Below, piece by piece: positions 9,374 through 50,996 of a DNA stretch of 64,000 nt. The position numbers and the translations under genes were made by a program. The number at the start of each line of letters is the position of its first letter. The first letter of the stretch is position 1. The stretch comes from Candidatus Omnitrophota bacterium (lineage in GTDB: Bacteria; Omnitrophota; Gorgyraeia; JABMRG01): assembly GCA_041650035.1 (NCBI GenBank), contig JBAZLY010000002.1:15436-79435 (forward strand), read 5' to 3'. Under the pieces are notes generated by a model, which saw only the letters and a program-made list of their open reading frames with translations, did no database searches and was not told where the DNA came from.

Positions 9374-9375
9374 CA

Positions 9376-11723: not shown

Positions 11724-11755
11724 TACCGGATGCATCCGGAAAAAAGGCCTTGAGC

Positions 11756-15762: not shown

Positions 15763-15869
15763 GGGGTCCAGGCATTATTTGTCGTTATATTGTCCGCGTA
15801 ACGGAATTTTCTTGTAATTGGCCAAAGACAAGGGTAAAATATCTTATAAATTTAAACCTGGGAGGATAT

Positions 15870-16688: not shown

Positions 16689-16823
16689 AAAAGTTGTTAT
16701 AAAAGGCAAATTAGATGAAGCTTTTACGGCATAGCCTGTGCAGAAGGCGGTACAGAACGCAGATCAAGATAAGACAATGGTTTGCCGCGGGGATGCGCGC
16801 CATATTAAAAAGGAGGCCCGGAC

Positions 16824-19933: not shown

Positions 19934-20902
19934 ATGAATCAAGCCAAGGAAATGCGCCTTAAGAAAACGAATATTGATAAATTCATCAAAGAAAAATGCG
20001 CCAATATATCCGCTATTGTAGGCGGCGCGGAGGCGATCAACGCACTTTCCGGCGGAGTAGATAGTGCCGCCGTCACCATGCTCGGCCATAAGGCGATAGG
20101 CAAAAAACTTAAGACATATTTTATAGACAACGGGCTGATGCGCCAGAACGAGGCGCGAATGGTAAAGGATATTTTCAAAAAACTCGGCGTTGAGGTCAAT
20201 GTTATCAACGCCAGAAATATATTTTTAAATGCCCTTCGTGGAATAGAAGACGCGGAAATGAAAAGAGAGGCCATATCGCAGACCTTTTACAAGGATGTAT
20301 TCGGCCGATTGGTAAAAAACAGCCATGCCCGCTTCCTCCTGCAAGGGACAATCCTGACAGACATTGATGAGACTGTCGCTGGGATAAAAAGACAGCATAA
20401 TGTGTTTGAGCAGCTTGGTATTGACCCTGAAAAAAGTTTCGGATACAAGATATTGGAACCTCTTGTCCGGCTTCGCAAGGACAGCGTCAGGTATCTGGCA
20501 AAATCTCTCGGTCTGCCGGAAGACATATATAACCGTCAGCCTTTTCCAGGTCCTGCGCTTGCCGCGCGGATCATTGGCGAGGTAACCGGCGAACGGATAG
20601 AACTGGCCCGGGAATCAACCGGCATTCTTGAACAAGAATGCCGCGGGATAAAGGCTTTTCAGTATATGGCCATACTTCATAACGACAAGGTCACAGGCGT
20701 AAGGGACGGGAAAAGGGCTTTCGGCGCGCAGATAGAAATAAGGTGCTGGGATAGCACGGACGCCAGAAAGGCCAAACCTACAAACCTGCCGTTTAAAATA
20801 CTGCGCAAGATAGCTGACAGGATAACATCCGAGATTGCCGGCGTTGTAAGCGTAACCTATAACATAACCACGAAACCCCCTTCAACCATAGAGGCTGTTT
20901 GA
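19934..20902 (+). CDS. divergent stand-alone GMP-synthase-like ATP pyrophosphatase (GuaA C-terminal domain / archaeal GuaAB-like)
   Basis: SGGVDS PP-loop, C-terminal KPPSTIE dimerisation motif; the XMP-binding [10 protein letters not shown] region is altered to DAEMKREAISQTF; a canonical guaA sits at 37887-39428. Confidence 0.65.
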   Translation: MNQAKEMRLKKTNIDKFIKEKCANISAIVGGAEAINALSGGVDSAAVTMLGHKAIGKKLKTYFIDNGLMRQNEARMVKDIFKKLGVEVNVINARNIFLNALRGIEDAEMKREAISQTFYKDVFGRLVKNSHARFLLQGTILTDIDETVAGIKRQHNVFEQLGIDPEKSFGYKILEPLVRLRKDSVRYLAKSLGLPEDIYNRQPFPGPALAARIIGEVTGERIELARESTGILEQECRGIKAFQYMAILHNDKVTGVRDGKRAFGAQIEIRCWDSTDARKAKPTNLPFKILRKIADRITSEIAGVVSVTYNITTKPPSTIEAV

Positions 20903-30185: not shown

Positions 30186-32021
30186 TTAATCCGCCTGTGC
30201 CGCGCGGCCGGCTCTTTTGCGGGCGGTTTCAGCAAGATAAAGCTTTCTGATCCTTATAGACTTTGGGGTAATCTCAACTAATTCATCATCCTCGATAAAC
30301 TCAAGGGCAAATTCAAGGGTCATCTGCCTTGGCGGGGTAAGCGCTATAGCCTCATCGCTTCCCGAAGCACGCATATTGGTTAGTTTTTTACCACGCAACG
30401 CATTTACAACCAAATCAACGCCTTTATTGTTGACGCCTACAATCATGCCTTCATAAATCTTGTCTCCCGGGCGTATAAATATCTCGCCACGGTCCTGAAG
30501 ATTAAAAAGGGCGTAAGCTACGGCATTACCTGCCGCCTGGGAAATAAGAACGCCGCTTTGACGCAACGGCAATTCTCCTTTATAGGGCTGATATTCAAAA
30601 AAGTTCTGATACATCACGCCATTGCCGCGTGTCATCATCAAAAAATCACCTCTAAAACCAATCAAGGCCCTTGAGGCTATAAGAAACTCCATACGGCATG
30701 TACCCGCTGACGTTATCTTTATATCCCGTGTCTGCGCTTTGCGGGAGCCGAGGGCCTGCATAACAGCCCCTTGATACTCGCTTTCAACTTCTATGACTAC
30801 CTCCTCCACAGGTTCAAACGGCCGGCTGTCAATCTTTTTTAAAATCACCTGCGGCCTTGATACCTCCATCTCATAGCCTTCGCGGCGCATTGTCTCAATA
30901 AGTATGGCGAGATGAAGCTCTCCCCTGCCGGAGACCTTAAGCCTTTCCGTTCCGGCCACATCTTCTACCTTTATACCAACATTTATCATTGCCTCATGCA
31001 TAAGGCGTTCGCGTATATGCCTTGAGGTCAAAAATCTGCCTCCGTCCGACCCTGCAAGCGGGCTTGTATTATGAGAAAAATTCATGGATATCGTCGGCTC
31101 ATCTATTTTAATTACCGGCAGTCCTTGCGGATTATCCGCGCATGCCAGAGTCTCTCCTACTTCAGCATTTTCAACACCGGATATCAATATAATGTCGCCT
31201 GCTGCAGCCTCTTCCGCCTCAACCCGCGCCAGGCCGCGGTATTTCATGATCCGGGTCACTTTGCCCTTCTCAATAGACCCGTCACGTTTGACAAGTGCTA
31301 TGGTATCATTAATACGGACAGCTCCGCAGAATATCCTGCCTATGGCAATACGCCCTATATAAGAATCATAATCAAGCATTGTGATCAGCATCTGAAAAGG
31401 CAGGTCAGGGTCTGCAATAGGGGGTAATACCCTGTGCAATATTGCCTCTAAAAGAGGCCTCATTGAATCCCTCGGGTCATCAAGGTCAAGCATGGCATAG
31501 CCATCCTTACCGGAGGCATAGATTATGGGAAAATCAAGTTGTTCATCGGTTGCATTTAGCTCGCAGAAAAGATCAAATACCATGTCCGCCACCTCGTCAG
31601 GGCGAACATGCGGGCGGTCAAGTTTGTTTATTACAAGTATGGGTTTTAGATGCAGTTCAAGGGATTTTTTAAGGACAAATTTGGTCTGGGGCATAGGGCC
31701 TTCAAAGGCATCAACGAGCAGGAGTACACCGTCAACCATTTTCAATATACGCTCGACCTCGCTTCCGAAATCAGCGTGGCCGGGCGTATCCACAAGATTG
31801 AATTGAACCCCTTTATACTGCAAAGAGGCGTTCTTGGAGAGGATAGTGATCCCTCTTTCTTTTTCAAGCGGGTTGGAGTCCATTATGGCGGACTCGCCTT
31901 CCTTAAATTTATGAGCGCCCGAATACCTTAATAAGGCGTCAATCAAGGTAGTCTTGCCATGGTCAACATGGGCTATTATAGCAAGATTTCTTATGTCTTT
32001 TCTTCTCTTTTGATGCGGCAT
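30186..32021 (-). CDS. typA: translational GTPase TypA/BipA
   Basis: G1 AHVDHGKTT, G3 DTPGH, G4 NKLD; EF-G-like domain order. Confidence 0.9.
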   Translation of the reverse strand: MPHQKRRKDIRNLAIIAHVDHGKTTLIDALLRYSGAHKFKEGESAIMDSNPLEKERGITILSKNASLQYKGVQFNLVDTPGHADFGSEVERILKMVDGVLLLVDAFEGPMPQTKFVLKKSLELHLKPILVINKLDRPHVRPDEVADMVFDLFCELNATDEQLDFPIIYASGKDGYAMLDLDDPRDSMRPLLEAILHRVLPPIADPDLPFQMLITMLDYDSYIGRIAIGRIFCGAVRINDTIALVKRDGSIEKGKVTRIMKYRGLARVEAEEAAAGDIILISGVENAEVGETLACADNPQGLPVIKIDEPTISMNFSHNTSPLAGSDGGRFLTSRHIRERLMHEAMINVGIKVEDVAGTERLKVSGRGELHLAILIETMRREGYEMEVSRPQVILKKIDSRPFEPVEEVVIEVESEYQGAVMQALGSRKAQTRDIKITSAGTCRMEFLIASRALIGFRGDFLMMTRGNGVMYQNFFEYQPYKGELPLRQSGVLISQAAGNAVAYALFNLQDRGEIFIRPGDKIYEGMIVGVNNKGVDLVVNALRGKKLTNMRASGSDEAIALTPPRQMTLEFALEFIEDDELVEITPKSIRIRKLYLAETARKRAGRAAQAD

Positions 32022-32098
32022 ATTTTTCCCACAAATAAAAAACGCGTGTTTATCGCGCCTTTGATAAGATACGTATTTCTTACTCTATGAATTGCCAT

Positions 32099-32367: not shown

Positions 32368-32670
32368 TTAAAATTTGTCAAGGGGACAGGATTCCTCAAC
32401 CTCCCATCGCCTGTCAAATTCATTGTATCTTAAAGTGACCCGTTCCTTGACATATTCGTGAGATATATCAACATGCGCGGACACGCGGCCTATCATGGCA
32501 TCGGTTATGGTCAATCCCTCTATATCGTATCCATATTTACGCGAGACATATTCCTTCGCGGCCTGTTCGGGCATATCTATCCCCATATCTGTCTCCTCCG
32601 CCATAATCACACCCTGGCAGGAGAAGAAAAGAAAAACAGTCAGCAAGACAAAGAATATGAATTTCATCAT
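32368..32670 (-). CDS. small secreted hypothetical protein (about 100 aa)
   Basis: Start MMKFIFF preceded by AAGGGGAG RBS; signal peptide; no family. Confidence 0.45.
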   Translation of the reverse strand: MMKFIFFVLLTVFLFFSCQGVIMAEETDMGIDMPEQAAKEYVSRKYGYDIEGLTITDAMIGRVSAHVDISHEYVKERVTLRYNEFDRRWEVEESCPLDKF

Positions 32671-32689: not shown

Positions 32690-34210
32690 TTAGGACACAA
32701 ACATGCTGTTTGTTGAGAAATTCGGTTCAGTGGTTAGGTTTATGCCCAATCTGCGAAGCCCTGTCTCATCACCAGTAGTCGGTATATGCGTAATATGCAT
32801 CTCACAGCCGGAAAGATCTTTAAGATGCTTCATGCATATCTTTGATGTCGGATTAGTCGCGGCACTGATACTAAGCGCTATTAAGGCCTCTTCAAGGTCA
32901 AGGCTTGCCGTTTTTTCGTCAGATATGTCTTTTTTTAGCTTGGCAATAGACCTGATTACGCTTGGGGACAATAGGTGCACACCGTCAGGTATACCGGCCA
33001 ACACCTTTATCGTGTTCAATATAAGGCTTGATGTGGCATGCATAAGGGTTGAATTCTTGCCCGTAACGATAGCCCTGTTTTTGAGCTCTATGGCAGCCCC
33101 GCAATAAATACCCTCATTTCCTTTCCCAGACCTCTCCGCCTCTTTTGCCGATTTCTGGGCGGCCGACACAACGCGCCTATCAGATATTTTTATCTTAAGC
33201 TTCTTCATAATAGCCTCAACACGTTCTACCGCGTCTTTTTCTACAAGGCCGAGTATATATTCGCACGAATACCTGAAATAACGCCTTATTATCTCCTGCC
33301 TTGCCGCGCGTTCGACAATCTTATCGTCAATGATACCGAATCCCGCGCGGTTAACGCCCATATCGGTGGGCGATTTATACATCGCTTCGGCACCCGTTAT
33401 CTTCTCAAGTATCCTTTTAAGCACGGGGAATATCTCGATGTCCCGGTTATAATTAATAACGCTTTGGCCATAATGTTTGAGATGGAACGGATCTATCTGG
33501 TTAAAGTCCCCTATATCAGCCGTCGCGGATTCATAAGCGACATTAACAGGGTGCTCAATAGGCAGATTCCATATGGGAAATGTCTCAAACTTCGCGTAAC
33601 CGCTCTTCTTGCCTTTTCTGTAATCATGATAAAGCTGGCTTAGGCATGTGGCAAGTTTACCGCTGCCCGGGCCGGGCGCCGTAACAATAACAATCGGGTT
33701 TTTTGTCTCTATATACCTGTTGGCGCCGTAACCTTCATCGCTTACGATAGTATCCACATCCTTTGGATATCCTTTTATGGCGCGGTGGGTATACACCCTT
33801 ACCCCTCTTCTTTCAAGCTTGTTCTTAAAGATCTTGACGGCAGGCTGATCGTTAAAACGGGTAATCACGACAGCCAGTATACTAATACCCCAGCCTTTCA
33901 GATCATCTATCACTTTAAGTATATCGCTGTCATAGGTAATACCGAAATCCGCCCTTACCTTTCTTCTCTCTATATCGCCCGAATGTATGCAGAGTATAAT
34001 ATCCGCTTTACCTTTAAGCTTATGCAAAAGCCGCATCTTCGCGTTAGGGTCAAAACCGGGCAGGACCCTTGAGGCGTGATAATCAAACAGGAGCTTTCCC
34101 CCAAATTCCAAATATAGTTTGCCATTAAACCTCTCCACGCGCTCCAATATGGCATCTGTCTGTTCACGCAGATACCTTTCATTATCAAAACCAATCCCGC
34201 GCAATGCCAT
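32690..34210 (-). CDS. DUF1846/UPF0371-family protein
   Basis: N-terminus IGFDNERYL...KLYLEFGGKL..D.HASRVLPGF as I recall for UPF0371; P-loop-like TAPGPGSGKLAT; start 1 nt after purF stop. Confidence 0.6.
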   Translation of the reverse strand: MALRGIGFDNERYLREQTDAILERVERFNGKLYLEFGGKLLFDYHASRVLPGFDPNAKMRLLHKLKGKADIILCIHSGDIERRKVRADFGITYDSDILKVIDDLKGWGISILAVVITRFNDQPAVKIFKNKLERRGVRVYTHRAIKGYPKDVDTIVSDEGYGANRYIETKNPIVIVTAPGPGSGKLATCLSQLYHDYRKGKKSGYAKFETFPIWNLPIEHPVNVAYESATADIGDFNQIDPFHLKHYGQSVINYNRDIEIFPVLKRILEKITGAEAMYKSPTDMGVNRAGFGIIDDKIVERAARQEIIRRYFRYSCEYILGLVEKDAVERVEAIMKKLKIKISDRRVVSAAQKSAKEAERSGKGNEGIYCGAAIELKNRAIVTGKNSTLMHATSSLILNTIKVLAGIPDGVHLLSPSVIRSIAKLKKDISDEKTASLDLEEALIALSISAATNPTSKICMKHLKDLSGCEMHITHIPTTGDETGLRRLGINLTTEPNFSTNSMFVS

Positions 34211-34211
34211 A

Positions 34212-35594
34212 CTATCTGCCTTTCTCTAATATATTTTTTGTAAATTTTTTCGGTATTTGTGTCGGGTAATCCCGGTTGAAACAGGCCTTGCAAAAATTAT
34301 CACCCGCAAGGGGCATAGCCTTTAGCATACCCTCGAGGCTAAGGTAGTTCAGGCTGTCAAGGCCTATGAAATCCCTTATCTTATCAACCGTGCGGTTAGA
34401 GGCTATAAGCTCTCTCCTGGTCGGAAAATCTATCCCATAATAGCAAGGTGATATCACGGGTGGACAGCTTATCCGCATATGGACCTCTTTGGCCCCTGCC
34501 TGCCGCAGGCTTTTAACGCGGCTGCGGCTTGTGGTCCCGCGCACTATTGAATCTTCAACTATCACGACCCGTTTCCCCTTAAGCAATTCACTGATCGGAT
34601 TAAGCTTTATCCGTACCCTGAAATCCCTAATCTGTTGTACCGGCTGAATAAAAGTCCTGCCGACATAATGGTTCCTTATCATACCCATCTCAAACGGCAG
34701 ACCTGATTCTACTGCAAAACCCAAAGCCGCGTAATTGCCTGAATCGGGAAACGGCATGACCATATCGGCATCAACCGGCGCCTCTTTCGCCAACTCCGCC
34801 CCAAGACGCTTTCTTGTAAGATACACATTCTTGGTAAAAATATCGCTGTCAGGCCTGGCAAAATATATAAACTCAAAGATACAGTGGGCCCGGGATGCGC
34901 AATCATTGAATACCACGCTTGAAGGCTGGCGTCCATCAATAAAAACAATCTCGCCGGGATTAATATCGCGTATATATTTAGCGCCTATGATATCAAAGGC
35001 GCATGTCTCGCTTGACAGCACATAAGAATTACCAATACTGCCCAGACTTAACGGCCTCATACCTAAGCGGTCGCGCGCGCCTATCAACATCCCATCAACC
35101 AACATTATAACAGAAAAAGCCCCTTCAAACCTGGAAAAAACCTCGGGCAGGCTTTCTTTTAAGGGCTTGCGGCGCAGACGGGCAAGCATATGGATTATGA
35201 GTTCCGAATCCATGGTTGTCCCAAAAACAGAACCACCCTGCTCCATTTCCTCGCGCAGAGAATACGCGTTGGTAAAATTCCCATTATGCGCTACCGCGAT
35301 ATGGCCCTTGCCGTGTCTTGCCAAAAACGGCTGAATATTACTAGCGCTGCTGGAACCCGTAGTGGAATACCGCACATGGCCTAATGCCAAGGTGCCTTTT
35401 AATTTTTGTATGGAATCCCCGTCAAAGACATCACTGACAAGCCCCATACCCTGGCGCTGTATTATCCTGTTTTTACTATAAGATAGTATGCCGGCGCTTT
35501 CTTCGCCTCTGTGCTGCAAGGCATACAACCCCAGATATGTCAATAATGATGCGTCTTTGTTTCCGTATACACCAAATACACCACACATAGTCAT
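34212..35594 (-). CDS. purF: amidophosphoribosyltransferase
   Basis: N-terminal MCGV nucleophile, Ntn-GATase plus PRTase (VEDSIVRGTT) domains. Confidence 0.9.
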   Translation of the reverse strand: MTMCGVFGVYGNKDASLLTYLGLYALQHRGEESAGILSYSKNRIIQRQGMGLVSDVFDGDSIQKLKGTLALGHVRYSTTGSSSASNIQPFLARHGKGHIAVAHNGNFTNAYSLREEMEQGGSVFGTTMDSELIIHMLARLRRKPLKESLPEVFSRFEGAFSVIMLVDGMLIGARDRLGMRPLSLGSIGNSYVLSSETCAFDIIGAKYIRDINPGEIVFIDGRQPSSVVFNDCASRAHCIFEFIYFARPDSDIFTKNVYLTRKRLGAELAKEAPVDADMVMPFPDSGNYAALGFAVESGLPFEMGMIRNHYVGRTFIQPVQQIRDFRVRIKLNPISELLKGKRVVIVEDSIVRGTTSRSRVKSLRQAGAKEVHMRISCPPVISPCYYGIDFPTRRELIASNRTVDKIRDFIGLDSLNYLSLEGMLKAMPLAGDNFCKACFNRDYPTQIPKKFTKNILEKGR

Positions 35595-37823
35595 TTATTC
35601 CAGTCTTGACTTAATAGCATTGCGCCATATTTGGCTAAGTTCGGAAAGCCCTGCATTAATAACTGACCTGCCGCCAACCCTGATGTCCAAAGCATCCGAA
35701 CCGACAACGCCTATTACACTACACCGTGTCTTGTTTTTAGCGGCAATGGCCTGAAGCTTGCCAAGCGCGGCCTTATCCAGACTGACTATTATCCTGGAAG
35801 GGGCCTCGCCGAACAAAAGCTCATCTGTCCTCATACCGCCCTTTTCCAGGTTAACGCAAGCGCCTAACATCCGGGATGGATCGGAGATAGCGGATTCTGT
35901 CAGCGCGACAGCAAGCCCGCCTTCCGAGAGATCATGCGCCGAACGAATTATGCCCGCGTCAATGGCGGAAAGCACTGTTTCATGAAGGCGTTTTTCAGCC
36001 TCTATGTCAATGCTGGGATTGCCTTTCTTCATATCGTGAATAAGATACAGATATTCGCTTCCCGAAAGGTCGCCCCTGCTTTCTCCTAAGAGAACTATCA
36101 CATCCTGCTGTGTTTTGAAATTTTGCGTTACGTATTTGCCCGCGTCCTCTATCAAACCAACCATACCGACCATCGGACTTGGGTCAATAGCGCCTTTCGG
36201 ATTCTCATTGTAAAAACTGACATTACCGCTTACCACTGGCGTGTTCAACACCGCGCAGGCGCGGGAAAGTCCATCTATGCATTTTTCAAACTGCCAGTAA
36301 TTTTCAGGCTTCATGGGGTTTCCAAAGTTGAGCCCGTCGGTTATTGCCAATGGCCTCGCGCCCGCGCATACCACATTCCTGGCGGCCTCCGCCACATTCA
36401 TCATAGCCCCTTGATAGGGGTTAAGGTAACAAAACCTACCGTTACAATCAACGCTTAAGGCAAGGGCCTTTTTAGTCCCCTTGACTCTTATTATAGCCGC
36501 GTCGGATCCGGCATTGAGGATAACATCATCTTTATCAACATAGGCAAACTTGGAATACGCCGATTCCTTGCTGGCAATAGTCGGTGAATCCAACAATTTC
36601 AATAAAACCTTGTTCATGTCTTTCGGTTCGGATACCTTAGACAGATCAAGTTTCTGCGCGGGTTTTAAGTACTTTGGCTGTCTGGAAGGTCTGTCATATA
36701 AGGGGGCCTTTTGGGTGAGCGCGCTTATAGGCACCTGGCAGACTACAACACCCTTTTCTTTAACGCGCATGGTCTTTTCTTTTATAACCTTGCCTATCGC
36801 AACCGCATTGATGCCCCATTTTTTAAGAACAGACATAGCCTTTTTCTCACTGCCGTGATTAAGTATAGCAAGCATCCTTTCCTGTGATTCCGACAAGAGT
36901 ATCTCATAGGCTGTCATGTTCTTTTCACGCTGGGGCACAAGGGCGACATCTATCTCGATCCCGGTCCCGCTTCTTGAGGCTGTTTCACACGAGGAACATG
37001 TAAGCCCGGCGGCACCCATATCCTGCATGCCTGCAACAAGGCCCTTCTCAATAAGCTCAAGACAGGCATGCCTTAAACGCTTTCCGAGCTCGGGATCACC
37101 GATGGCTACCCTGCCCGTGTCAGAGGCGGAATCATCCGTTATCTCCTGCGAGGCGAAACTCGCTCCTCCGACACCATCTCTTCCGGTATCGCCTCCGATA
37201 TAATATACGGGATTTCCTACCCCGCAAGCGGCGCCGCGCATTATATTCTTATGCTTAACGACACCCACGCAAAACGCGTTGACCAGGGGATTGCCTTCAT
37301 AACATTTATCAAAATAAGTGTCCCCGCCTACAGCGCTTACCTCCGATTTACTGGCATAATGGACAAGGCCCCTGACGACCTCTTTAAAGAGATATTTTAC
37401 TTTTTTAGTATCAAGGCTGCCGAATCTTACGGCGCCTAATACCGCGACAGGCCTGGCACCGGTAGTAAAGATGTCTCTAAGGCATCCCCCTATACCCGTC
37501 GCCGATGCCTCAAAGGGCTCAACCGCCGACGGATGGTTATGGGACTCCATCTTAAACGAGACGCCATATCCATCGCCGATATCAACGATGCCTGAATTTT
37601 CCTCTCCGGCGCCAATCAATACCTGCTTTGATCTTTTAGGAAATTTCTTGAATTGTTTTCTTGAATTTTTATAGCTGCAATGCTCCGACCACATTGCCGA
37701 AAAAACGCCCAGCTCGGTAACATTCGGCGTTCTCCCCATTATTTTTTTTATATTAGTAAATTCCTGCCTGCTCAAACCCATCTCCTTTACCAATGCCAAG
37801 TTCACCTTGACCTCTTTTTTCAT
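35595..37823 (-). CDS. purL: phosphoribosylformylglycinamidine synthase subunit PurL (small form)
   Basis: 742 aa, duplicated PurM-like domains, no fused glutaminase; stop abuts purF start. Confidence 0.9.
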   Translation of the reverse strand: MKKEVKVNLALVKEMGLSRQEFTNIKKIMGRTPNVTELGVFSAMWSEHCSYKNSRKQFKKFPKRSKQVLIGAGEENSGIVDIGDGYGVSFKMESHNHPSAVEPFEASATGIGGCLRDIFTTGARPVAVLGAVRFGSLDTKKVKYLFKEVVRGLVHYASKSEVSAVGGDTYFDKCYEGNPLVNAFCVGVVKHKNIMRGAACGVGNPVYYIGGDTGRDGVGGASFASQEITDDSASDTGRVAIGDPELGKRLRHACLELIEKGLVAGMQDMGAAGLTCSSCETASRSGTGIEIDVALVPQREKNMTAYEILLSESQERMLAILNHGSEKKAMSVLKKWGINAVAIGKVIKEKTMRVKEKGVVVCQVPISALTQKAPLYDRPSRQPKYLKPAQKLDLSKVSEPKDMNKVLLKLLDSPTIASKESAYSKFAYVDKDDVILNAGSDAAIIRVKGTKKALALSVDCNGRFCYLNPYQGAMMNVAEAARNVVCAGARPLAITDGLNFGNPMKPENYWQFEKCIDGLSRACAVLNTPVVSGNVSFYNENPKGAIDPSPMVGMVGLIEDAGKYVTQNFKTQQDVIVLLGESRGDLSGSEYLYLIHDMKKGNPSIDIEAEKRLHETVLSAIDAGIIRSAHDLSEGGLAVALTESAISDPSRMLGACVNLEKGGMRTDELLFGEAPSRIIVSLDKAALGKLQAIAAKNKTRCSVIGVVGSDALDIRVGGRSVINAGLSELSQIWRNAIKSRLE

Positions 37824-37886
37824 TTTGTTCTCCTGTATGTTTATCTTTATTCGCTGCTTACCTTATGCCCTGATATTACCAAAAAA

Positions 37887-39428
37887 CTATTCCCACTCTA
37901 TGGTGCTCGGAGGCTTTGAAGATATGTCAAAAACCACCCGGTTTATACCACTGACCTCGTTCATAATACGGTTTGATACCCTTTGCAGAACATCCCCGGG
38001 CAGCCTTGCCCAATCCGCGGTCATAGCATCATTGCTTGTAACGGCGCGCACACATATGACATTTCCGTATGTCCGCTTATCGCCCATAACACCCACCGTA
38101 TTAACAGGCAAAAAAACACAAAACGCCTGCCACAACTTAGAGTAGAGCCCGCAACCTTTTATCTCATCTATTAATATCGCGTCAGCGTCCCTTAATATAT
38201 TGAGCTTCGCCCTTGTGATATCACCTATTATCCTGACGGCAAGTCCGGGGCCCGGGAATGGGTGCCTATAGACCAATTCATCCGGCATCCCGAGCTCTTT
38301 CCCCAGAAGCCTGACCTCGTCCTTAAAAAGCTCCCGGAGCGGCTCTATAAGGCTGAATCTTATCTTGACCGGCAGGCCGCCTACATTGTGATGGGTCTTA
38401 ATAACGGCAGAAGGTCCACCGGCGATTGAACTCGATTCAATAACATCGGGATACAGGGTCCCTTGCGCGAGAAACTTGATATCGCCAAAAGACCTTGCCT
38501 GTTTCTCGAAAACATCAATAAAGACCTTTCCGATGATCTTGCGTTTTTTTTCAGGCTCCATAACACCTTTAAGGGCCTTTAAAAACACCTTTGAAGAATC
38601 AACGCATTTCAGATCTATCCGGTAATTACGCTTGAACCTCTTTTCAACAATAGCCGCTTCATCTTTACGCAACAGGCCGTTATCGATAAATACGGCCTTA
38701 AGATTGGGGCCTATGGCCTTATGCAAAAGCAACGCCAAGACAGAGGAATCAACGCCTCCGCTTAAACCGCATAATACTTTTTCGCCACGGGTTTTTTCGC
38801 GTATGATTTTTACGGCCTCTTCCGCGAATGAACCCATAGACCAACTCCTGCGGCAGGCTGATATATCAAAAATAAAATTTTTTAAAATCTTCGCGCCGCC
38901 GATTGTATGAACTACTTCCGGATGAAACTGCACGGCATAAAACCTTCTTCCGGTATCCTGCATAACCGAGATACCTGCATTGCCGGTCTTTGCTGATACG
39001 CTAAACCCCGCGGGAAGCCGGGTAATTTTATCGCCATGGCTCATCCAGACAATCCCGCAATGCCCCAGACCGCTCAAAAGGCCGTTGTTATCAACAATTC
39101 GCAACTGCGCGCTGCCATATTCCCCGGCAGGCGCTTTGGCAACAGAGCCACCAAGCAGTTTAGCCATCAGCTGCGCGCCGTAACATATACCCAATACGGG
39201 CATGCCGAGAGAAAAAATATTTTTGTCAGGGCGGGGACTCTTTTTTGATATAACACTGGCCGGTCCGCCGGATAGAATTACGCCATTTGGATTTAAGGAC
39301 AGAATCTTTTCGGCAGGTGTATTATAAGGCAATATTTCCGAATACACATGATTTTCCCTTATTCGACGGGCTATCAGATGGGTATATTGGGAACCAAAAT
39401 CAAGAATCGCTATCCAGTCTTTTGCCAT
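37887..39428 (-). CDS. guaA: GMP synthase (glutamine-hydrolysing)
   Basis: GATase Cys (GICYG), SGGVDSS PP-loop, canonical PEKKRKIIG and C-terminal KPPSTIEWE. Confidence 0.9.
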
Positions 39429-39526: not shown

Positions 39527-42500
39527 TTAGGCCTTTGCTGGCGCGCCTAAATCTTTGTAATAATCCTGTAGAGACTTCGGGAAGATCTTGCTCTTTTTGG
39601 CCGCGTCTATTCCCTCTATCGCCGCGGTAGCGGCCGCAAGTGTTGTGATATAAGGGACTTTGTATTGTATGGCCTTCATCCTTATATAGCTGTCGTCATA
39701 TTTTCCGGTCCGCCCGACAGGCGTATTAATAATAAAATGTATCTCTTTATTCTTGATCGCGTCGGCAATATTAGGCCGGCCCTCATGGAGCTTTTTTAAT
39801 ACAACCGTGTCAATACCGTTCTCATTCAAAAACTCCGATGTGCCTGACGTGGTCAATATATTAAACCCGATCTTCTTAAGTTTCCTGGCTATCGGCAAAA
39901 GTTTATGTTTATCTTTATCGGCAACCGTTAACAAGACATTGCCCTCAAGGGGCAGCCTTGAACCCGCCGCCTCTTCAGCCTTAAAAAATGCCAAGCCGAA
40001 GGTATCTGCTATACCCATTACCTCGCCTGTGGCGCGCATCTCGGGGCCAAGAACAGGGTCAACCTCGGGAAACATATTGAACGGGAAAACAGCCTCCTTT
40101 ACGCAAAAATAGGGTATATTTGATGACCTTAGGATATCCTTGAAGTCTTTTATGCGTTTGCCAAGCATGACCTGGGTGGCGATATGGGCCAGCGGGACAT
40201 TTTGCACCTTAGAAACAATGGGCACCGTTCTTGAAGCGCGGGGGTTTGCCTCAAGTATATAAACCTTGTCCCGGCATATCGCGTATTGAATATTCATAAG
40301 ACCGACGACCTTCAGAGATCTGCCTATACGGCCTGTGTATTCCCTTATCGTATCAAGGTGGGATTTCTTTATAGTCTTCGTGGGTATAGCGCAGGCGGAA
40401 TCACCGGAATGCACGCCCGCAAGCTCTATATGCTCCATAATCGAGGCGACAAATGTTTCTTCACCGTCACAAACGGCATCAACCTCTGTCTCTACGGCCT
40501 CCTCAAGAAATCTGTCAATAAGCATAGGATGTTCAGGACATACATTAATAGCCTCGAGGGCGTATTTGCGCAGCATTTCTTCATCATAGACAATCTCCAT
40601 GCCGCGGCCGCCAAGCACGAAAGAAGGCCTTATCATAAGCGGATACCCTATCCTTTTGGCAATAACAAGCGCCTCATCAAGGGACATGGCTGTCCCGCTT
40701 TCAGGCTGAGGAATGCCGAGCTCCATTATCTTCTGCCTGAAACTTTCCCTGTCTTCGGCGAATTTGATGCTTTCAGGCGTTGTCCCGGCTATTTTTACGC
40801 CGTTTTCTTTAAGCTGTTGCGCTATATTTAACGGCGTCTGGCCTCCAAACTGGACTATCACACCTTCAGGTTTTTCTTTTTCATAAATGCTAAGCACATC
40901 TTCCACGGTAAGCGGCTCAAAATAAAGTTTATCCGAGGTATCATAGTCGGTTGACACGGTCTCGGGATTGCAGTTAACCATGACCGATTCATATCCGGAT
41001 TCTTTAAGTGCAAAAGCGGCATGAACACAAGTATAGTCAAACTCAATGCCCTGACCTATCCTGTTGGGACCGCCGCCTAATATCATAATCTTTTTTTTGT
41101 TTGACGAGACAGGGGTATTGTCCTTGCCGTTATAAGTTGAATAATAATAATAACAAGCGTTTTCTACGCCGCTGACAGGAATGGCCTCATATGCCTGTCT
41201 TATGCCAAGGGCAATCCTCTTCGCCCTGATTTCCATTTCGCCCGCATTAATGACCCTGGAAAGATACCTATCGGCAAAACCCCATTTTTTGGCCTTTACA
41301 AACTTATCTTTAGGCAGGCTATCCAAGGTATATTTTGATATGTCTTCCTCAAACTCCACCAGCTCTTTGATCTCGTTTAAAAACCATTCATGGATATGCG
41401 TGAGCTTGTTTATATCGTCAACGGAGCAGCCTTTACGTAAAGCTTCATAAATCAAAAAAACGCGTTCACTTGACGGCATAGACAGCATTTCAGTTAATTT
41501 TTCCTTGGATAATTCGTTAAAATTTTTGGCAAAACCCAAACCGTATCTGTTTATTTCAAGAGAGCGTATAGCCTTCTGAAAGGCCTCCTTGAATGTCTTG
41601 CCTATGCTCATCACCTCCCCGACAGCCTTCATTTGGGTACCCAGCACATCCTTGGCCTGGGGAAATTTTTCAAAAGCCCATCTGGCGAATTTGATAACTA
41701 CATAGTCGCCTCCAGGCTTGTATTTGTCAAGACTGCCATGTCTCCAATAGGGTATCTCGTTAAGCGTTAACCCGGAGGCAAGCTTGGTTGATATAAGCGC
41801 TATCGGAAAACCCGTGGCCTTTGAGGCCAGGGCCGAAGAACGCGATGTTCTCGGATTGATCTCTATAACCACTATCCTGCCGTCCTGTCTGTTGTGGGCA
41901 AACTGGACATTTGTGCCGCCTACAACATCAATGGCGTCAACAATTTTATATGCCATATCCTGCATGCGGGTCTGAAGCGGCTTCGGCACTGTAAGCATAG
42001 GGGCGGAACAAAAACTATCTCCCGTGTGAACACCCATTGGGTCTATATTTTCAATAAAACATACAGTTATCTTTTGTCCATTTTTATCGCGCACGACTTC
42101 AAGTTCAAGCTCTTCCCATCCAAGAACTGATTCTTCAATCAGAACCTGGTTTACCAAACTCGCCGCAAGGCCTCTTGCGGCGATCTCCCTTAGCTCCTCA
42201 ACATTATAGGCTATGCCTCCGCCTGTGCCGCCCAATGTATAAGCAGGCCGCAGGACAACGGGGTATTTAAGTCTCTCCGCGATCCTCTCCGCCTCCTCTA
42301 TGGAATAGCACGGTTCAGATTTGGCCATAGGAATACCTATATCATTCATGGCCTGCTTAAAGGCTATCCTGTCCTCACCCCGTTCTATAGCATCAACCTT
42401 AACCCCTATTACCTCAACGGCATATTTATCAAGAATCCCTGACTTATGAAGGCTTGAGGCGAGGTTTAATCCTGTCTGACCCCCGAGATTGGGCAGCAGG

Positions 42501-42754
42501 GCATCGGGTCTTTCTTTTTCAATTATCTTTTCTATTGTCTCAACGGTAAGAGGCTCAATATACGTCTTGTCTGCTGTCGCGGGATCGGTCATTATGGTGG
42601 CAGGATTGGAGTTAACCAGGACAACTTCATAGCCCTGTTCTTTCAAGGCCTTACAGGCCTGCGTCCCTGAATAATCAAATTCGCAAGCCTGGCCTATTAT
42701 TATAGGTCCTGAACCAATTATAAGTATCTTATGCAGATCTTTTCTTTTCGGCAT
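39527..42754 (-). CDS. carB: carbamoyl-phosphate synthase large subunit
   Basis: 1075 aa, duplicated ATP-grasp halves, MGS-like C-terminal domain; no carA adjacent. Confidence 0.9.
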   Translation of the reverse strand: MPKRKDLHKILIIGSGPIIIGQACEFDYSGTQACKALKEQGYEVVLVNSNPATIMTDPATADKTYIEPLTVETIEKIIEKERPDALLPNLGGQTGLNLASSLHKSGILDKYAVEVIGVKVDAIERGEDRIAFKQAMNDIGIPMAKSEPCYSIEEAERIAERLKYPVVLRPAYTLGGTGGGIAYNVEELREIAARGLAASLVNQVLIEESVLGWEELELEVVRDKNGQKITVCFIENIDPMGVHTGDSFCSAPMLTVPKPLQTRMQDMAYKIVDAIDVVGGTNVQFAHNRQDGRIVVIEINPRTSRSSALASKATGFPIALISTKLASGLTLNEIPYWRHGSLDKYKPGGDYVVIKFARWAFEKFPQAKDVLGTQMKAVGEVMSIGKTFKEAFQKAIRSLEINRYGLGFAKNFNELSKEKLTEMLSMPSSERVFLIYEALRKGCSVDDINKLTHIHEWFLNEIKELVEFEEDISKYTLDSLPKDKFVKAKKWGFADRYLSRVINAGEMEIRAKRIALGIRQAYEAIPVSGVENACYYYYSTYNGKDNTPVSSNKKKIMILGGGPNRIGQGIEFDYTCVHAAFALKESGYESVMVNCNPETVSTDYDTSDKLYFEPLTVEDVLSIYEKEKPEGVIVQFGGQTPLNIAQQLKENGVKIAGTTPESIKFAEDRESFRQKIMELGIPQPESGTAMSLDEALVIAKRIGYPLMIRPSFVLGGRGMEIVYDEEMLRKYALEAINVCPEHPMLIDRFLEEAVETEVDAVCDGEETFVASIMEHIELAGVHSGDSACAIPTKTIKKSHLDTIREYTGRIGRSLKVVGLMNIQYAICRDKVYILEANPRASRTVPIVSKVQNVPLAHIATQVMLGKRIKDFKDILRSSNIPYFCVKEAVFPFNMFPEVDPVLGPEMRATGEVMGIADTFGLAFFKAEEAAGSRLPLEGNVLLTVADKDKHKLLPIARKLKKIGFNILTTSGTSEFLNENGIDTVVLKKLHEGRPNIADAIKNKEIHFIINTPVGRTGKYDDSYIRMKAIQYKVPYITTLAAATAAIEGIDAAKKSKIFPKSLQDYYKDLGAPAKA

Positions 42755-42854
42755 AGAAATCCCTGTTCATGTATACTAATCGGTGATTATAACATAGCCA
42801 AAAGTATCTGGCAAATCATTTTATATCTATTTTTGACGTCTATAACAAATACCG

Positions 42855-45645
<2,791 letters not shown>

Positions 45646-45695
45646 TCTATCCGCAGTTGTTTTTTTAATGTCTGATATCCGGTACCGTATATCCG

Positions 45696-46532
45696 CTATC
45701 TACCCAGGCGGCATATATGCTCTTCTTTATCTATATACGCGCGCGATCTGTTAATCAATTCGTCCCAATCCACAAGATGGGCATTAAATTCCGGGCCGTC
45801 AACACAGCTAAATTTGACCTGGCTTCCGATCTTGACCCTGCAACCCCCGCACATACCGGTGGCATCGACCATCAGAGCGTTAAGAGAGACGATAGTCTCC
45901 ACGCCAAAAACTTTGGTAACTTCTGAAACCGATTTCATCATCGGAATAGGTCCAACAGCATAAACCAGAACGGGTTTCGGGCCGGCATCTGCCAAGTTTA
46001 ACACCTCTGACAATATGCCTGTGACAAAACCCTTTCTTCCGTATGAGCCGTCATCCGTGGTAATGTGCAGAATATCGGATACCAACCTAATCTTTTCCTC
46101 TAATAACAAAAGGCCTTTTGTCTTTGCGCCCAGGATAACAGTAATATGATTGCCGGCCTCTTTCATAGCCCTGCCTATAGGATATAATTCGGCTATGCCA
46201 AGACCTCCCCCTACCAATACTACGTTACCATATCTCTTTATCGGGGTAGCATGACCCATAGGTCCGGCTACAGCATACACGGAATCTTCTTGACTCATCG
46301 CTGATAATAGTCGTGTGCTGAAACCTATCTCTTGAATTATCAGCGTAATAGAACCCGACACAGGGTCTTTGTCTACAACAGTAAGAGGTATCCTCTCGCC
46401 CTGTTCTTTTGCCATGACAACAACAAATTGGCCGGGCTTAATCTTTGCCGCTATCAAAGGCGCGTGAATAACAAGTCGGGTTATCTTTGTCCCAAGGCAT
46501 TGTGCTATAGTATTCTTTTCCAATATTTTCAT
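45696..46532 (-). CDS. PyrK-like FAD/[2Fe-2S] electron-transfer subunit (NfnA/SudB-like)
   Basis: FNR-like fold, C-terminal MVDATGMCGGCRV cluster motif; ATG (MKILEKN) preferred over upstream TTG. Confidence 0.65.
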   Translation of the reverse strand: MKILEKNTIAQCLGTKITRLVIHAPLIAAKIKPGQFVVVMAKEQGERIPLTVVDKDPVSGSITLIIQEIGFSTRLLSAMSQEDSVYAVAGPMGHATPIKRYGNVVLVGGGLGIAELYPIGRAMKEAGNHITVILGAKTKGLLLLEEKIRLVSDILHITTDDGSYGRKGFVTGILSEVLNLADAGPKPVLVYAVGPIPMMKSVSEVTKVFGVETIVSLNALMVDATGMCGGCRVKIGSQVKFSCVDGPEFNAHLVDWDELINRSRAYIDKEEHICRLGR

Positions 46533-46663
46533 AGATAGCCTTTTAGAAAGACGTCGGTGCTTGAACACGGGATATAAAAAATAGGTGCCTTTTTCCTCCG
46601 ACAATCATTGTCGAAAAAAGACACCTTTGTCATACATACGATTTAATATAACATAAAACAAAA

Positions 46664-47860
46664 TTATGTCAACATTATTTTGCGCCAAAAATCCTTCAGG
46701 TCCGGCTTATCAATAAGCCTAAGAACGTTTTTTGTAAATTGCTCACCGGTAATTCCGGTGCCCCTTCCGGTAATGAGCATTTTTTTATCGGCGCCGCAAA
46801 CGTCAAGAACCATATCCATTTTTTCAGCCAAAGACGAATAACCAATATGCCTTAGAAGCATAGCTCCCGCGCGGATCATGGAACTGGGATCGGCATATTT
46901 CTGCCTACCCTCTTCAACCATCCGCGGCGCGCTACCGTGTATTGCCTCAAACATTGACCAGTGTGTCCCTATATTAGCACTGCCAGCGGTCCCGACACCA
47001 CCCTGCAGTTGGGCCGCTTCATCCGTAAGTATATCCCCATAGAGGTTAGGCAGGACTATTACCTTGAAATCGCCTCTCCTTGCCGGGTCTATAAGTTTGG
47101 CGGACATTATGTCCACATACCACTCATCTAATTTAATATTTGGGTATTCCTGCGCTATCCGGTAAGCTGTCCTGGAAAACCTGCCGTCCGTTGCCTTGAT
47201 CACATTTGATTTCGTAACCGCCGTAACGCGGTCTATATTATTCTTATCGGCATATTCAAAGGCCATCCTGATAATCCGCTCCGAACCCTGGCGCGTCGCT
47301 ACGCTGAAATCCACACTGATATCATCGGCAATATCAAACCCCCTGGAACCAAGTATATAAGCGCCTTCGGTATTTTCCCGGAAAAAAACCCATTCTATTT
47401 TTTCTTTCGGTATCCTGAACGGGCGCACATTAGCAAACAGGTCAAGCTGGCGTCTCATGGCGACATTAGCGCTTTCTATATTAGGCCATTTGCCGCCCGC
47501 TTGAGGCGTTGTAGTTGGGCCTTTCAGTATTACATGACAACTCTTAAGCTCATCGAGAACATCATCAGGTATGGCCTTATTATGCCTTACCCTGTTCTCT
47601 ATCGTAAGCCCGGTTATGTCCTTAAAAGAGATCTTTCTCGCGGCAATCTTATCGCGTAATACATGCGTTAAGACCTCCCGCGCGTGCTTTGATATCTCAA
47701 GACCTATACCATCGCCGGGGCATATACCGATGATAATAGCCGGCAGGTTGGAATAATCAGTCTCTTCACGGGGCATTTTCATCTTGTCTATCCGTTCCAG
47801 CTGTTCCCTGATTATCGCGCCGAATTTGTCCTTCGCCTTTTCTATGACATCATCATACAT
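46664..47860 (-). CDS. icd: NADP-dependent isocitrate dehydrogenase (IDH/IMDH superfamily)
   Basis: NLYGDILTDEAAQLQGGVG and GSAP motifs; N-terminal extension of about 25 aa. Confidence 0.75.
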   Translation of the reverse strand: MYDDVIEKAKDKFGAIIREQLERIDKMKMPREETDYSNLPAIIIGICPGDGIGLEISKHAREVLTHVLRDKIAARKISFKDITGLTIENRVRHNKAIPDDVLDELKSCHVILKGPTTTPQAGGKWPNIESANVAMRRQLDLFANVRPFRIPKEKIEWVFFRENTEGAYILGSRGFDIADDISVDFSVATRQGSERIIRMAFEYADKNNIDRVTAVTKSNVIKATDGRFSRTAYRIAQEYPNIKLDEWYVDIMSAKLIDPARRGDFKVIVLPNLYGDILTDEAAQLQGGVGTAGSANIGTHWSMFEAIHGSAPRMVEEGRQKYADPSSMIRAGAMLLRHIGYSSLAEKMDMVLDVCGADKKMLITGRGTGITGEQFTKNVLRLIDKPDLKDFWRKIMLT

Positions 47861-47876
47861 AAGAGGGCCTTCCTGC

Positions 47877-49196
47877 TTAAAGGATAGCTAAATAGCGGTC
47901 GAGCTCATGCCTTGTGACCTGTTTCTTATACTCATTCCATTCATCTTTTTTATTTCTTATGAAATATTCAAACACCTTATCGCCGAGGGCCTTCCTGACA
48001 AGAGGGCTGTTTTCGGTTATCCTTATGGCATCATAGAGATCGTCAGGTAAAGACTCTATGCTATGGACATTTCTTTCATCTTCCGTCATATTATAAATAT
48101 TATTGGTGACCTGTTTCGGGAGCTTATATCTTTTCCTTATACCCTCGAGGCCGGCCGCGAGCATGACCGAAAACGCCAAATAAGGATTACACGCCGGGTC
48201 AGGGTTTCTCATCTCAATCCTTGTTGCCATTTCCTTACCCGGCTTATACATAGGCACCCTGACCAGGGCTGACCTATTCCTATGCGCCCATGACACATAG
48301 ACAGGAGCTTCATACCCCGGCACAAGCCTTTTGTAAGAGTTTACCCATTGACAGCATACGGAGCATATCTCCTTGGCATGCATTAACAACCCTGCTATAA
48401 AATACCTGGCCGTATCCGATAGGTGGTATTTATCGTTTTTATCATAAAACGTGTTTCTCCTGCCTTTGAACAATGACATGTGCGTGTGCATGCCACTTCC
48501 ATTAATACCGTAAACAGGCTTTGGCATAAAAGTCGCGTGCATATTCTGCTGCATCGCCACCTCCTTAACGATCATCCGGTATGTCATAACATTATCCGCC
48601 ATGAGAAGCGCCTCGTTATAACGAAGGTCTATTTCGTGCTGGGAAGAGGCCACCTCATGATGCCAGTATTCCACCTCAATACCCATCTTTTCAAGGGCAA
48701 GGACCGTTTTGCGCCGCAGATCCTGGCCTATGTCCATAGGCGTTAAGTCAAAATATCCGCCTTTATCAAGTATCTCCGTGCCCCCGGAATTCCTGAAATA
48801 AAAATACTCGAGTTCAGGTCCGACATTAAAAGTGTAACCCATCTTTTTTGCCTCGGCAATATTCCTTTTTAAGACATAACGCGGGTCTCCCCCAAAGGGT
48901 TTACCGTCGGGCTCGACAACATCACAGAATATCCTTGCCACAGGCCCTTCCTCTGTAGCCCACGGCATAATCTGGAAGGTAGAGATATCAGGCCTTACTA
49001 CCATATCGGATTCTTCGATACGAGAAAAACCCTCTATTGACGATCCGTCAAAACCCATGCCCTCATCCAGGGCATGGGGCAATTCCTGCACCGGGATATC
49101 GAAACTCTTTAAAAAACCCAGGACATCCGTAAACCACAAACGTAAAAAGGCTATCCTTTTCTTTTTGACTGTCTCTAATATCTCTTGTTTGGTCAT
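47877..49196 (-). CDS. glnA: glutamine synthetase type I
   Basis: GS beta-grasp and catalytic domains; 439 aa. Confidence 0.9.
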   Translation of the reverse strand: MTKQEILETVKKKRIAFLRLWFTDVLGFLKSFDIPVQELPHALDEGMGFDGSSIEGFSRIEESDMVVRPDISTFQIMPWATEEGPVARIFCDVVEPDGKPFGGDPRYVLKRNIAEAKKMGYTFNVGPELEYFYFRNSGGTEILDKGGYFDLTPMDIGQDLRRKTVLALEKMGIEVEYWHHEVASSQHEIDLRYNEALLMADNVMTYRMIVKEVAMQQNMHATFMPKPVYGINGSGMHTHMSLFKGRRNTFYDKNDKYHLSDTARYFIAGLLMHAKEICSVCCQWVNSYKRLVPGYEAPVYVSWAHRNRSALVRVPMYKPGKEMATRIEMRNPDPACNPYLAFSVMLAAGLEGIRKRYKLPKQVTNNIYNMTEDERNVHSIESLPDDLYDAIRITENSPLVRKALGDKVFEYFIRNKKDEWNEYKKQVTRHELDRYLAIL

Positions 49197-49295: not shown

Positions 49296-50996
49296 TTAGA
49301 ATACCTCCCTCTCTTCACTGTAAGACAAGTCAAGAAAATTACGGAGTTTTTTGCTGCGAATAGGGTGGCGCAATTTACGCAGGGCCTTTGCCTCTATCTG
49401 CCTTACCCTTTCCCTGGTGACATGGAATATGGTCCCTACCTCTTCCAGGGTCCTGGGGTAACCATCACCTATGCCAAACCTTAATTTTAACACCTGCTTT
49501 TCCCTTTCCGTCAATGTATCAAGGACACCGTCCATCTGTTCCTTGAGCATCGAATAGGCGGTGGCGCTGGCAGGCGACATCGCCCTTTTATCCTCTATAA
49601 AATCGCCGAAATGCGTGTCACCTTCATCTCCGACCGGGGTCTGCAGTGATATCGGCTCCTGGGCTATTTTTAATATACCCCTCACCTTCTCGACGGAAAG
49701 GTCCATGTGCCGGGCTATCTCCTCCGGGGTCGGTTCCCTGCCTGTCTCCTGAACAAGCGACCTGGATACCCTGACAAGCCTGTTTATGGTCTCTGTCATA
49801 TGAACAGGTATCCTTATAGTCCTGGCCTGGTCCGCGATCGAGCGGGTAATAGCCTGGCGTATCCACCATGTGGCATATGTGGAAAATTTATAACCTCTCT
49901 TGTATTCAAATTTATCAACGGCCTTCATGAGGCCTATATTGCCTTCCTGTATAAGGTCTAAAAATGAAAGCCCCCTGTTCGTGTATTTTTTAGCAATTGA
50001 GACCACAAGCCTCAAATTCGCCTCAACAAGGATCTTTTTGGTCTTCTGGAAATTTGCCTCTCTCTTCTTTATATTGAATATAAGCTGTCTAATCTTATCC
50101 TGGCCGAAACCGAATTCCTTTTCTATCTTCCTGATATTCTTATTGAGGCCCGCGAGCTGCGAAAACCTTCTTAACCTCTTAAGCCTGTTTACCTCCTTCT
50201 GTATTCTCTCGATCTGTTCGGCATGCATCTTGATCCTAAAACCCATTTCCTCAATAAATGTGGTCACAAGGACGAATTTGCACAAGATCTCTTTTATGGT
50301 CTTTTGACTCTTTGTCCTCTTTAATTTTTTCAAAAGTTTCGCGATACGGGTAACAGGTTTTATCTTGGCGGGGGCCAGGTCCTCTTTTATATAATCCTCT
50401 GGATTCAATTCTTCGTTGACAATCTTTTGGGTAAGTTCCTTGACATACTCAACGCTTAGCCTGCAATCGAATATAACATCCCTAAAACCGTTTTCGGCCT
50501 CTTCTATCCTTTTGGCCAGACTTATCTCATCCTCTCTTGAAAGAAGCGGTATCTGACCCATCTGGCGAAGATACATCCTGACAGGATCATCCATGGGCCC
50601 GTCAGACTTAGGGGAAAGCGCATGTTTAGCAGCTTTGTCTTTTTCGCGGGCCGATTCCGAATCAAGGAGTTCTATATGCTCCCGGTCAAGAGTGGAGAGA
50701 ATCTCATCTATATCCTCGGATGATGTTACGTCTTCCGGTAATATTTGGTTTATCTCGTCAAAAGTAAGATAACCCTTGGCCTTGCCGAGGCTTATCAGCT
50801 CTTTTATCTTGGCCGCGGGAACAGCGCTCTGCGCCCACGCCTGCCCGGATAGCGTTTTACTTGAACAATTTAAGTCCGCGATTTCGGCCGTATCACGATT
50901 CGCGGCCCCGGTGGAAGGTTGCGTCTTTATAGTTTTATTTTTTTTCTTGACCGTGAAACTTTTTTTCTTCTTTACCACTTTTTTCTTGGCCATCAA
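49296..50996 (-). CDS. rpoD: RNA polymerase primary sigma factor RpoD with Lys-rich N-terminal extension
   Basis: Regions 1.1-4.2 conserved ([38 protein letters not shown]); about 60-aa K-rich leader. Confidence 0.9.

Follow-up and report, generated by a model that had tools for sequence, protein, structure and literature searches.

A DUF1846 protein of Omnitrophota as a probable ortholog of the ammonia-dependent CTP synthase PyrJ, encoded in a proposed operon for nitrogen transfer to nucleotides

A 64-kb stretch of DNA from a Candidatus Omnitrophota bacterium (contig JBAZLY010000002.1, positions 15,436 to 79,435; referred to here in its full length as the window) encodes, on its minus strand, a protein of the DUF1846/UPF0371 family. 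We consider it likely, with a probability of roughly 0.77, that this protein is orthologous to PyrJ, a PyrG-independent, ammonia-dependent cytidine triphosphate (CTP) synthase, and that its gene belongs to an operon of nitrogen-transfer enzymes of nucleotide synthesis. According to the literature on PyrJ, ATP would activate uridine triphosphate (UTP), which would then be aminated to CTP by free ammonia and not by glutamine. The CTP synthase activity of the Omnitrophota protein is predicted by analogy with the ortholog of Streptococcus pneumoniae.

The initial annotation of the locus stated that DUF1846 has no assigned function, which is outdated. In their Dual Tn-seq preprint, Zik, Price, Arkin, Deutschbauer and Sham studied the DUF1846 protein SPD_0310 of S. 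pneumoniae and found it to be synthetically lethal with pyrG; double depletion of SPD_0310 and pyrG was rescued by cytidine only, and tests with 5-fluorocytidine ruled out a role in uptake (bioRxiv 10.1101/2024.09.24.614635). Purified SPD_0310 turned UTP into CTP with NH4+ but not with glutamine, and the gene was renamed pyrJ. The same preprint places the family mostly in Firmicutes and Actinobacteria, reports that about 31% of the genomes with pyrJ lack pyrG, including those of Clostridioides difficile, Clostridium tetani and Corynebacterium diphtheriae, and states that the C-terminal domain has a cytidine-deaminase fold (bioRxiv 10.1101/2024.09.24.614635). In a CRISPR interference study of C. 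difficile the DUF1846 gene CDR20291_0828 was listed as essential, its knockdown strongly impairing viability (PMC12157513).

Judged by its sequence, the window protein is a member of this family and an ortholog of PyrJ. Both Pfam domains score above their gathering thresholds in a single chain of about 500 residues, the N-terminal domain PF08903 at residues 6-338 (33197-34195, minus strand; E 8e-167) and the C-terminal domain PF20921 at residues 344-504 (32699-33181, minus strand; E 2e-52), and the NCBIfam equivalog model NF010184 yields 752 bits against a cut-off of 631. The protein matches two PDB entries over its full length, 7F00 with 50% identity (residues 6-501, E 1e-154) and 3BH1 with 49% identity (E 9e-150). 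Dozens of homologs from Omnitrophota are 72-87% identical to it. In a family alignment of 31 sequences from many phyla the mean column identity is 71%, and a P-loop-like block is invariant, as are about 100 further positions. This block, APGPGSGKLATC, which had been pointed out in the initial annotation, is confirmed at residues 178-189 (33644-33679, minus strand); its residues P179, G180, P181, S183, G184 and K185 are the same in all 31 sequences. It is not a canonical Walker A motif because Leu, not Ser or Thr, follows the Lys. The N-terminal domain was called P-loop ATPase-like in the preprint (bioRxiv 10.1101/2024.09.24.614635) and is also described in the paper on the crystal structure (PMC9238395).

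A nine-residue segment of the C-terminal domain, KGNEGIYCG (residues 362-370, about 33101-33127, minus strand), is present in most of the sampled phyla, and its Cys is invariant within Omnitrophota. The segment is deleted in both structurally characterised proteins, those of S. pneumoniae and C. diphtheriae, whereas most non-Firmicute members carry it.

An AlphaFold2 model of the full chain, with a mean predicted local distance difference test value (pLDDT) of 69.6, matches 7F00 and 3BH1 with template modelling (TM) scores of 0.74-0.81 (E 1e-40 to 2e-42). In a Foldseek search of the PDB the whole chain found only the family's own structures, and a family profile run against all PDB sequences found only 7F00 and 3BH1. 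Foldseek matches to eIF2B, 3-dehydroquinate synthase, TilS and asparagine synthetase, all with E > 0.01, were dismissed as noise. The possibility of a divergent PyrG was also rejected: hhalign against a PyrG profile gave a probability of 0.5%, and the protein has no Pfam glutamine amidotransferase (GATase) domain. These comparisons indicate that PyrJ is an analogous CTP synthase and not a derivative of PyrG. Family membership, domain architecture, the context counts given below and the lack of homology to PyrG are direct observations.

The pyrJ gene lies in an uninterrupted series of co-directional genes on the minus strand, from 32.3 to 52.8 kb, as established by open reading frame (ORF) calls together with Pfam and NCBIfam assignments. 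From upstream to downstream, and with the adjoining typA, the features are:

50993-52756, minus strand: dnaG
49296-50996, minus strand: rpoD
47877-49196, minus strand: glnA (NCBIfam)
46664-47860, minus strand: icd-like gene, isocitrate-dehydrogenase-like (NCBIfam)
45696-46604, minus strand: NfnA-like FAD/NAD-binding subunit (NCBIfam)
44215-45645, minus strand: gltA/NfnB-like gene, TIGR01316 "NADPH-dependent glutamate synthase" (NCBIfam)
42855-44231, minus strand: gdhA, NADP-dependent glutamate dehydrogenase (NCBIfam)
42786-42814, minus strand: promoter-like site TTGCCA-17-TATAAT with TG, in the gdhA-carB spacer (site scan)
39527-42754, minus strand: carB, full-length large subunit of carbamoyl-phosphate synthase (Pfam CPSase domains)
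37887-39428, minus strand: guaA, glutamine-hydrolysing GMP synthase (Pfam GATase and GMP_synt_C)
35595-37823, minus strand: purL, small-type subunit of phosphoribosylformylglycinamidine (FGAM) synthase, 742 residues (NF002290, 901 bits against a cut-off of 648)
34212-35594, minus strand: purF, amidophosphoribosyltransferase, ORF of 460 residues (TIGR01134, 505 bits against a cut-off of 350)
32690-34210, minus strand: DUF1846/UPF0371 gene, 506 residues, predicted PyrJ-type CTP synthase ortholog (Pfam, NCBIfam and PDB matches)
32368-32670, minus strand: ORF of 100 residues with a signal-peptide-like N terminus, kept in relatives
32038-32062, minus strand: terminator-like hairpin (9-bp stem) with a T-run, after the 100-residue ORF and before typA (site scan)
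30186-32021, minus strand: typA/bipA

The genes carB-guaA-purL-purF-pyrJ would thus form a co-transcribed unit, with pyrJ as its last enzyme gene, that follows directly downstream of an ammonia-assimilation block, glnA-icd-nfnAB-like-gdhA. In this block Icd would provide 2-oxoglutarate and the NfnAB-like enzyme NADPH, followed by GdhA and GlnA; an FAD/NAD subunit paired with a TIGR01316 protein is typical of NADPH-generating enzymes of the NfnAB type. Nitrogen from glutamine or ammonia enters nucleotides at five steps, those of CarAB, PurF, PurL(QS), GuaA and CTP synthase. The operon appears to gather these steps, with PyrJ probably filling the slot that PyrG would normally occupy, and they would be co-regulated beside the genes for the synthesis of glutamate and glutamine from ammonia. 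Placing an ammonia-only CTP synthase behind an NADP-dependent glutamate dehydrogenase, which typically serves assimilation when ammonia is replete, makes physiological sense.

The tight packing of purL, purF and the DUF1846 gene, on which the initial annotation was built, is borne out at both junctions. The purL/purF junction reads GAA TAA ATG ACT ATG TGT GGT, with an ATG abutting the purL stop codon TAA. The second ATG, at 35588, yields a PurF protein that begins with MCGVFG, i.e. with the catalytic Cys nucleophile at its N terminus; the public gene call starts PurF there (458 residues), in agreement with the 458-459 residues of PurF in relatives, and 35588 is likely the true start. The gap between purL and purF thus measures 0 nt with the first ATG or 6 nt with the second. 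The purF/DUF1846 junction is GAGAAAGGCAGA TAG T ATG, which leaves a gap of 1 nt, and a Shine-Dalgarno-like sequence, GAGAAAGG, lies within purF and ends 8 nt upstream of the DUF1846 ATG. This spacing, together with the internal ribosome-binding site, would entail co-transcription and makes coupled translation of purF and pyrJ probable. The 100-residue ORF starts 19 nt 3' of DUF1846 and is possibly the final gene of the transcript; it has no Pfam match, and ORFs about 40% identical to it occupy the same position in three close relatives (L164, L165 and L167).

The company kept by DUF1846 genes was surveyed in 80 loci from species-representative genomes, 80 metagenome loci and five hand-picked relatives, which are designated by L and a number. 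The record labels of the species-representative set comprise Omnitrophota, Thermodesulfobacteriota, Aminicenantes, Planctomycetota, Verrucomicrobiota, Bacteroidales, Spirochaetes, Clostridia, Actinomycetota and others. Context was read in 157 sampled loci by tblastn with the window proteins and by unbiased clustering of the ORFs located at most three genes from DUF1846. The commonest neighbour is carB, found in 15 of the 157 loci, always on the same strand and in 12 cases directly adjacent. It is followed by pyrG (8 loci), gdhA (5) and glnA (3). The sequence glnA-nfnAB-like-gdhA-DUF1846 occurs directly in the Omnitrophota-like loci L133, L142, L127 and L161, and pyrG stands right beside DUF1846 in L007, L101 and L118. 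L101 has the order carB-carA-carB2-purF-DUF1846-pyrG-nitroreductase-icd-guaA-purS/L-purQ and holds the full nucleotide nitrogen-transfer set in one string, the same grouping as in the window in another arrangement.

DUF1846 is also found in clusters for the synthesis of 3-deoxy-D-manno-octulosonate (KDO), with kdsB/kdsA nearby in two of the sampled loci (L115 and L143) and in the hand-picked L003. L003, from a complete 1.82-Mb Omnitrophota genome, reads kdsB-DUF1846-kdsA-kdsD-kdsC-lptC-lptA-lptB (9199-13990) and L143 reads kdsB-DUF1846-kdsA (407-3454); in L115 about 1.2 kb separate DUF1846 from kdsB-pyrG-kdsA-kdsD downstream of it (10001-16971). KdsB consumes CTP in the synthesis of CMP-KDO, and linkage of pyrG to kdsA is frequent in Gram-negative bacteria. 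Since its placement in kds clusters mirrors that of pyrG beside kdsA, DUF1846 takes PyrG-like positions. Each of the recurrent neighbours (carB, pyrG, gdhA/glnA and kdsB/kdsA) fits a CTP synthase that uses ammonia.

Several further arrangements were seen in the survey. The complete glnA-icd-nfnAB-like-gdhA block, at 42855-49196 in the window, is also located immediately upstream of DUF1846 in L133 and L142; in L144 the nfnAB-like pair and gdhA are upstream, and carA and carB intervene before DUF1846. A full-length carB without an adjacent carA stands next to DUF1846 or in its operon in the window and in L040, L067, L097, L129, L138 and L146, and L025, L144 and L157 have carA and a half-length carB (about 550 residues) next to DUF1846. 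Two archaeal-labelled loci, L007 (Nanoarchaeota single-amplified genome AM-311-I03) and L046 (Methanomassiliicoccales UBA280), carry a bacterial-type DUF1846 that is 69% and 64% identical, respectively, to that of Omnitrophota; pyrG follows directly downstream in L007 and after about 370 nt in L046. Their DUF1846 genes could stem from contamination of the bin or single-amplified genome or from horizontal transfer.

The neighbourhoods also bear on an older view of the family. SPD_0310 was proposed in 2022 to bind hemin, and in this proposal it would primarily be a cytoplasmic tetramer that binds and shuttles hemin in iron homeostasis; the evidence consisted of high-affinity hemin binding, the tetrameric structure 7F00 and a knockout with lower cellular iron and reduced virulence (PMC9238395). 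However, no family for heme, iron uptake or iron storage recurs near DUF1846 in the 157 loci, and later genetic and enzymatic work on the same protein has concluded that it acts as a CTP synthase. The essentiality of the gene in C. difficile, an organism listed as lacking pyrG, fits a supply of CTP, and the binding of hemin in vitro may be adventitious. We regard hemin shuttling as the primary function as highly improbable.

The Omnitrophota protein might instead catalyse a different ATP-dependent amination, of another pyrimidine nucleotide or of a deoxy or diphosphate form, or might be a redundant CTP synthase with a role at high ammonia. Identity to the assayed enzyme is only 50%, most members, the window protein included, have the KGNEGIYCG insertion, and the three loci in which pyrG adjoins DUF1846 suggest that the two proteins have non-redundant roles. 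Yet the uniformity of the family, with its high mean column identity and a single equivalog model, points to one conserved activity, and CTP is the common thread of its carB, pyrG and kdsB contexts, which makes these alternatives unlikely.

From its coupling to purL and purF, DUF1846 had initially been taken as a lead to a purine-pathway component, namely a substitute for PurS or PurQ, a regulator of PurF or PurL, or a purine salvage enzyme. The arrangement is indeed conserved over a short distance: carB-guaA-purL-purF-DUF1846 is kept in all four of the closest relatives examined (L164-L167; DUF1846 77-86% identical), including the tight packing, with 1-nt overlaps in L166 and L167. The local absence of purS and purQ also stands. 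Neither these genes nor pyrG or carA were detected by tblastn in the window or by protein look-ups in about 10 kb past each of its ends; the only CarA match in the window is the GATase domain of guaA. Nevertheless, two of the relatives have both genes in the operon itself, which reads carB-guaA-purS-purQ-purL-purF-DUF1846 with purS-purQ at 5430-6400 in L165 and at 5435-6411 in L166. DUF1846 is not a stand-in for PurS or PurQ because all of them coexist in these operons. Between guaA and purL purS-purQ are missing in the window, where the spacer measures 63 nt (37824-37886), in L164 (290 nt) and in L167 (141 nt), and the gap in the window is a local deletion or relocation. The presence or absence of purS-purQ thus varies inside one shallow clade.

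Outside this clade the neighbourhood survey that had been suggested to follow up the purine lead gave little: true purF adjoins DUF1846 in one of the 157 loci, L101, and purL in none besides L101. The linkage to pur genes is shallow, consisting of the Omnitrophota clade and this single locus, an outcome that the initial annotation had named as refuting the purine lead. The protein shows no homology with PurS or PurQ or with any regulator domain, nothing was found in support of a regulatory or salvage role, and the characterised ortholog acts on UTP, with only cytidine rescuing its depletion in a pyrG-null background. A purine function is therefore barely credible. What was informative in the initial association is the coupling to ATP- and nitrogen-consuming enzymes of nucleotide synthesis. 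The purine interpretation is largely superseded; the operon is informative and not unprecedented, and the function of the family had already been published.

PurF-like matches beside DUF1846 in six further loci from several phyla were not counted as pur linkage, as they represent a different protein (L005:11121-12103, L010:3149-4190, L016:11636-13147 on the minus strand, L020:2400-3857 on the minus strand, L034:7727-9127 on the minus strand and L145:1741-3141 on the minus strand). This paralog shares 29-31% identity with the window PurF and reaches 204 bits with TIGR01134 against the cut-off of 350. In the four N termini that were read (L005, L010, L016 and L020) the sequence is MSGIFG or MSGIYG, in which Ser replaces the catalytic Cys; the glutaminase site is possibly dead.

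Several points weigh against the assignment of the window protein to PyrJ-type CTP synthesis. The enzymatic assignment comes from a single preprint and from one ortholog that is 50% identical, a literature search found no paper on PyrJ later than the 2024 preprint, and NCBIfam still labels NF010184 "hypothetical protein". About 120 of the 157 loci show none of the named neighbours, and many of the positive loci are probably related Omnitrophota, so that the counts do not represent independent events. The promoter-like site at 42786-42814 is suggestive as a candidate transcript start of carB-guaA-purL-purF-pyrJ; the numbers of promoter-like and terminator-like sites do not exceed those in shuffled controls, and both provide positional hints only. 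An AlphaFold2 model of the C-terminal domain alone (pLDDT 68.6) returned its own family first in Foldseek and beyond it almost only proteins of the cytidine-deaminase fold, among them 5JFY (a plant cytidine deaminase, probability 0.75), guanine, guanosine and cytosine deaminases, TadA and ATIC. Each of these matches is non-significant when taken alone (E >= 0.1, TM 0.35-0.47), both models have a pLDDT of about 69, and the alignment of 31 sequences shows no conservation of the zinc motifs H/C-A-E and PCxxC. Jointly, the weak matches agree with the preprint and suggest a cytidine-deaminase-like fold without the canonical zinc motifs. The structure prediction and fold search proposed in the initial annotation thus led nowhere beyond the family for the whole chain and weakly to the deaminase fold for the C-terminal domain. 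A mechanism in which a deaminase is driven backwards by ATP stays a hypothesis because the canonical zinc ligands are not conserved.

With these reservations, the locus lends independent comparative-genomic support to the young, single-preprint assignment of PyrJ. By record labels it extends the spread of the family beyond Firmicutes and Actinobacteria to Omnitrophota, Planctomycetota, Verrucomicrobiota, Bacteroidales, Aminicenantes and Spirochaetes. Public annotation as "hypothetical" or "DUF1846 domain-containing" means that CTP synthesis is under-called in many metabolic reconstructions based on metagenome-assembled genomes.

As a more speculative extension, which we hold to be unlikely, a large part of nucleotide synthesis in this lineage may have shifted to free ammonia in place of glutamine. 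The idea draws on the loss of purS-purQ relative to sister contigs, on carB without a nearby carA, on the predicted ammonia-only PyrJ, on the location of the set directly behind gdhA and glnA, and on a GATase-less GuaA-like ATP-pyrophosphatase 12 kb away. If pyrG, purQ, purS and carA are missing from the genome as a whole, PyrJ would be its only CTP synthase, and PurL and CarB would operate with ammonia as their nitrogen source; for a nanobacterium, free-living or host-associated, this nitrogen economy would be unusual. The GuaA-like protein (19934-20902, plus strand; 322 residues) stands alone and combines PP-loop ATP-pyrophosphatase and GMP-synthase C-terminal domains with no glutamine amidotransferase domain. 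It is a second paralog besides the full-length guaA product of 37887-39428 and scores 296 bits with TIGR00884, below the cut-off of 339.

Elsewhere in the window, two tandem paralogous genes for proteins of about 700 residues occupy 56117-58222 and 58286-60355 on the minus strand. Their C-terminal parts match, below cut-off, a model of NosR-family cyclic di-GMP phosphodiesterase response regulators (HD-GYP-like), and the public call for the region lists GAF and seven-transmembrane sensor domains.

Among known systems, the closest is PyrJ of S. pneumoniae (SPD_0310, 7F00), which has the same two-domain DUF1846 architecture, shares the invariant PGPGSGKLATC block and is matched by the model with TM scores of 0.77-0.81; the window protein differs in its origin from Omnitrophota, its location within a carB-guaA-purL-purF operon and its nine-residue insertion in the C-terminal domain. 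DIP2346 of C. diphtheriae (3BH1), a UPF0371 protein from structural genomics, has the same fold with 49% identity over the full length, lacks the insertion and comes from an organism listed as having pyrJ without pyrG (bioRxiv 10.1101/2024.09.24.614635). PyrG catalyses the same net reaction as PyrJ, from UTP, ATP and a nitrogen donor to CTP, and keeps similar company, with carB and with kdsA/kdsB (L115). It hydrolyses glutamine, whereas PyrJ has no glutamine amidotransferase domain and does not use glutamine (bioRxiv 10.1101/2024.09.24.614635). Cytidine and cytosine deaminases (5JFY, 1WKQ and yeast cytosine deaminase) have the fold weakly matched by the C-terminal domain model and carry out the reverse chemistry, deamination at C4 of the pyrimidine; the zinc motifs H/C-A-E and PCxxC of this superfamily are not conserved in the DUF1846 alignment, and no relationship at the sequence level was found between the two.

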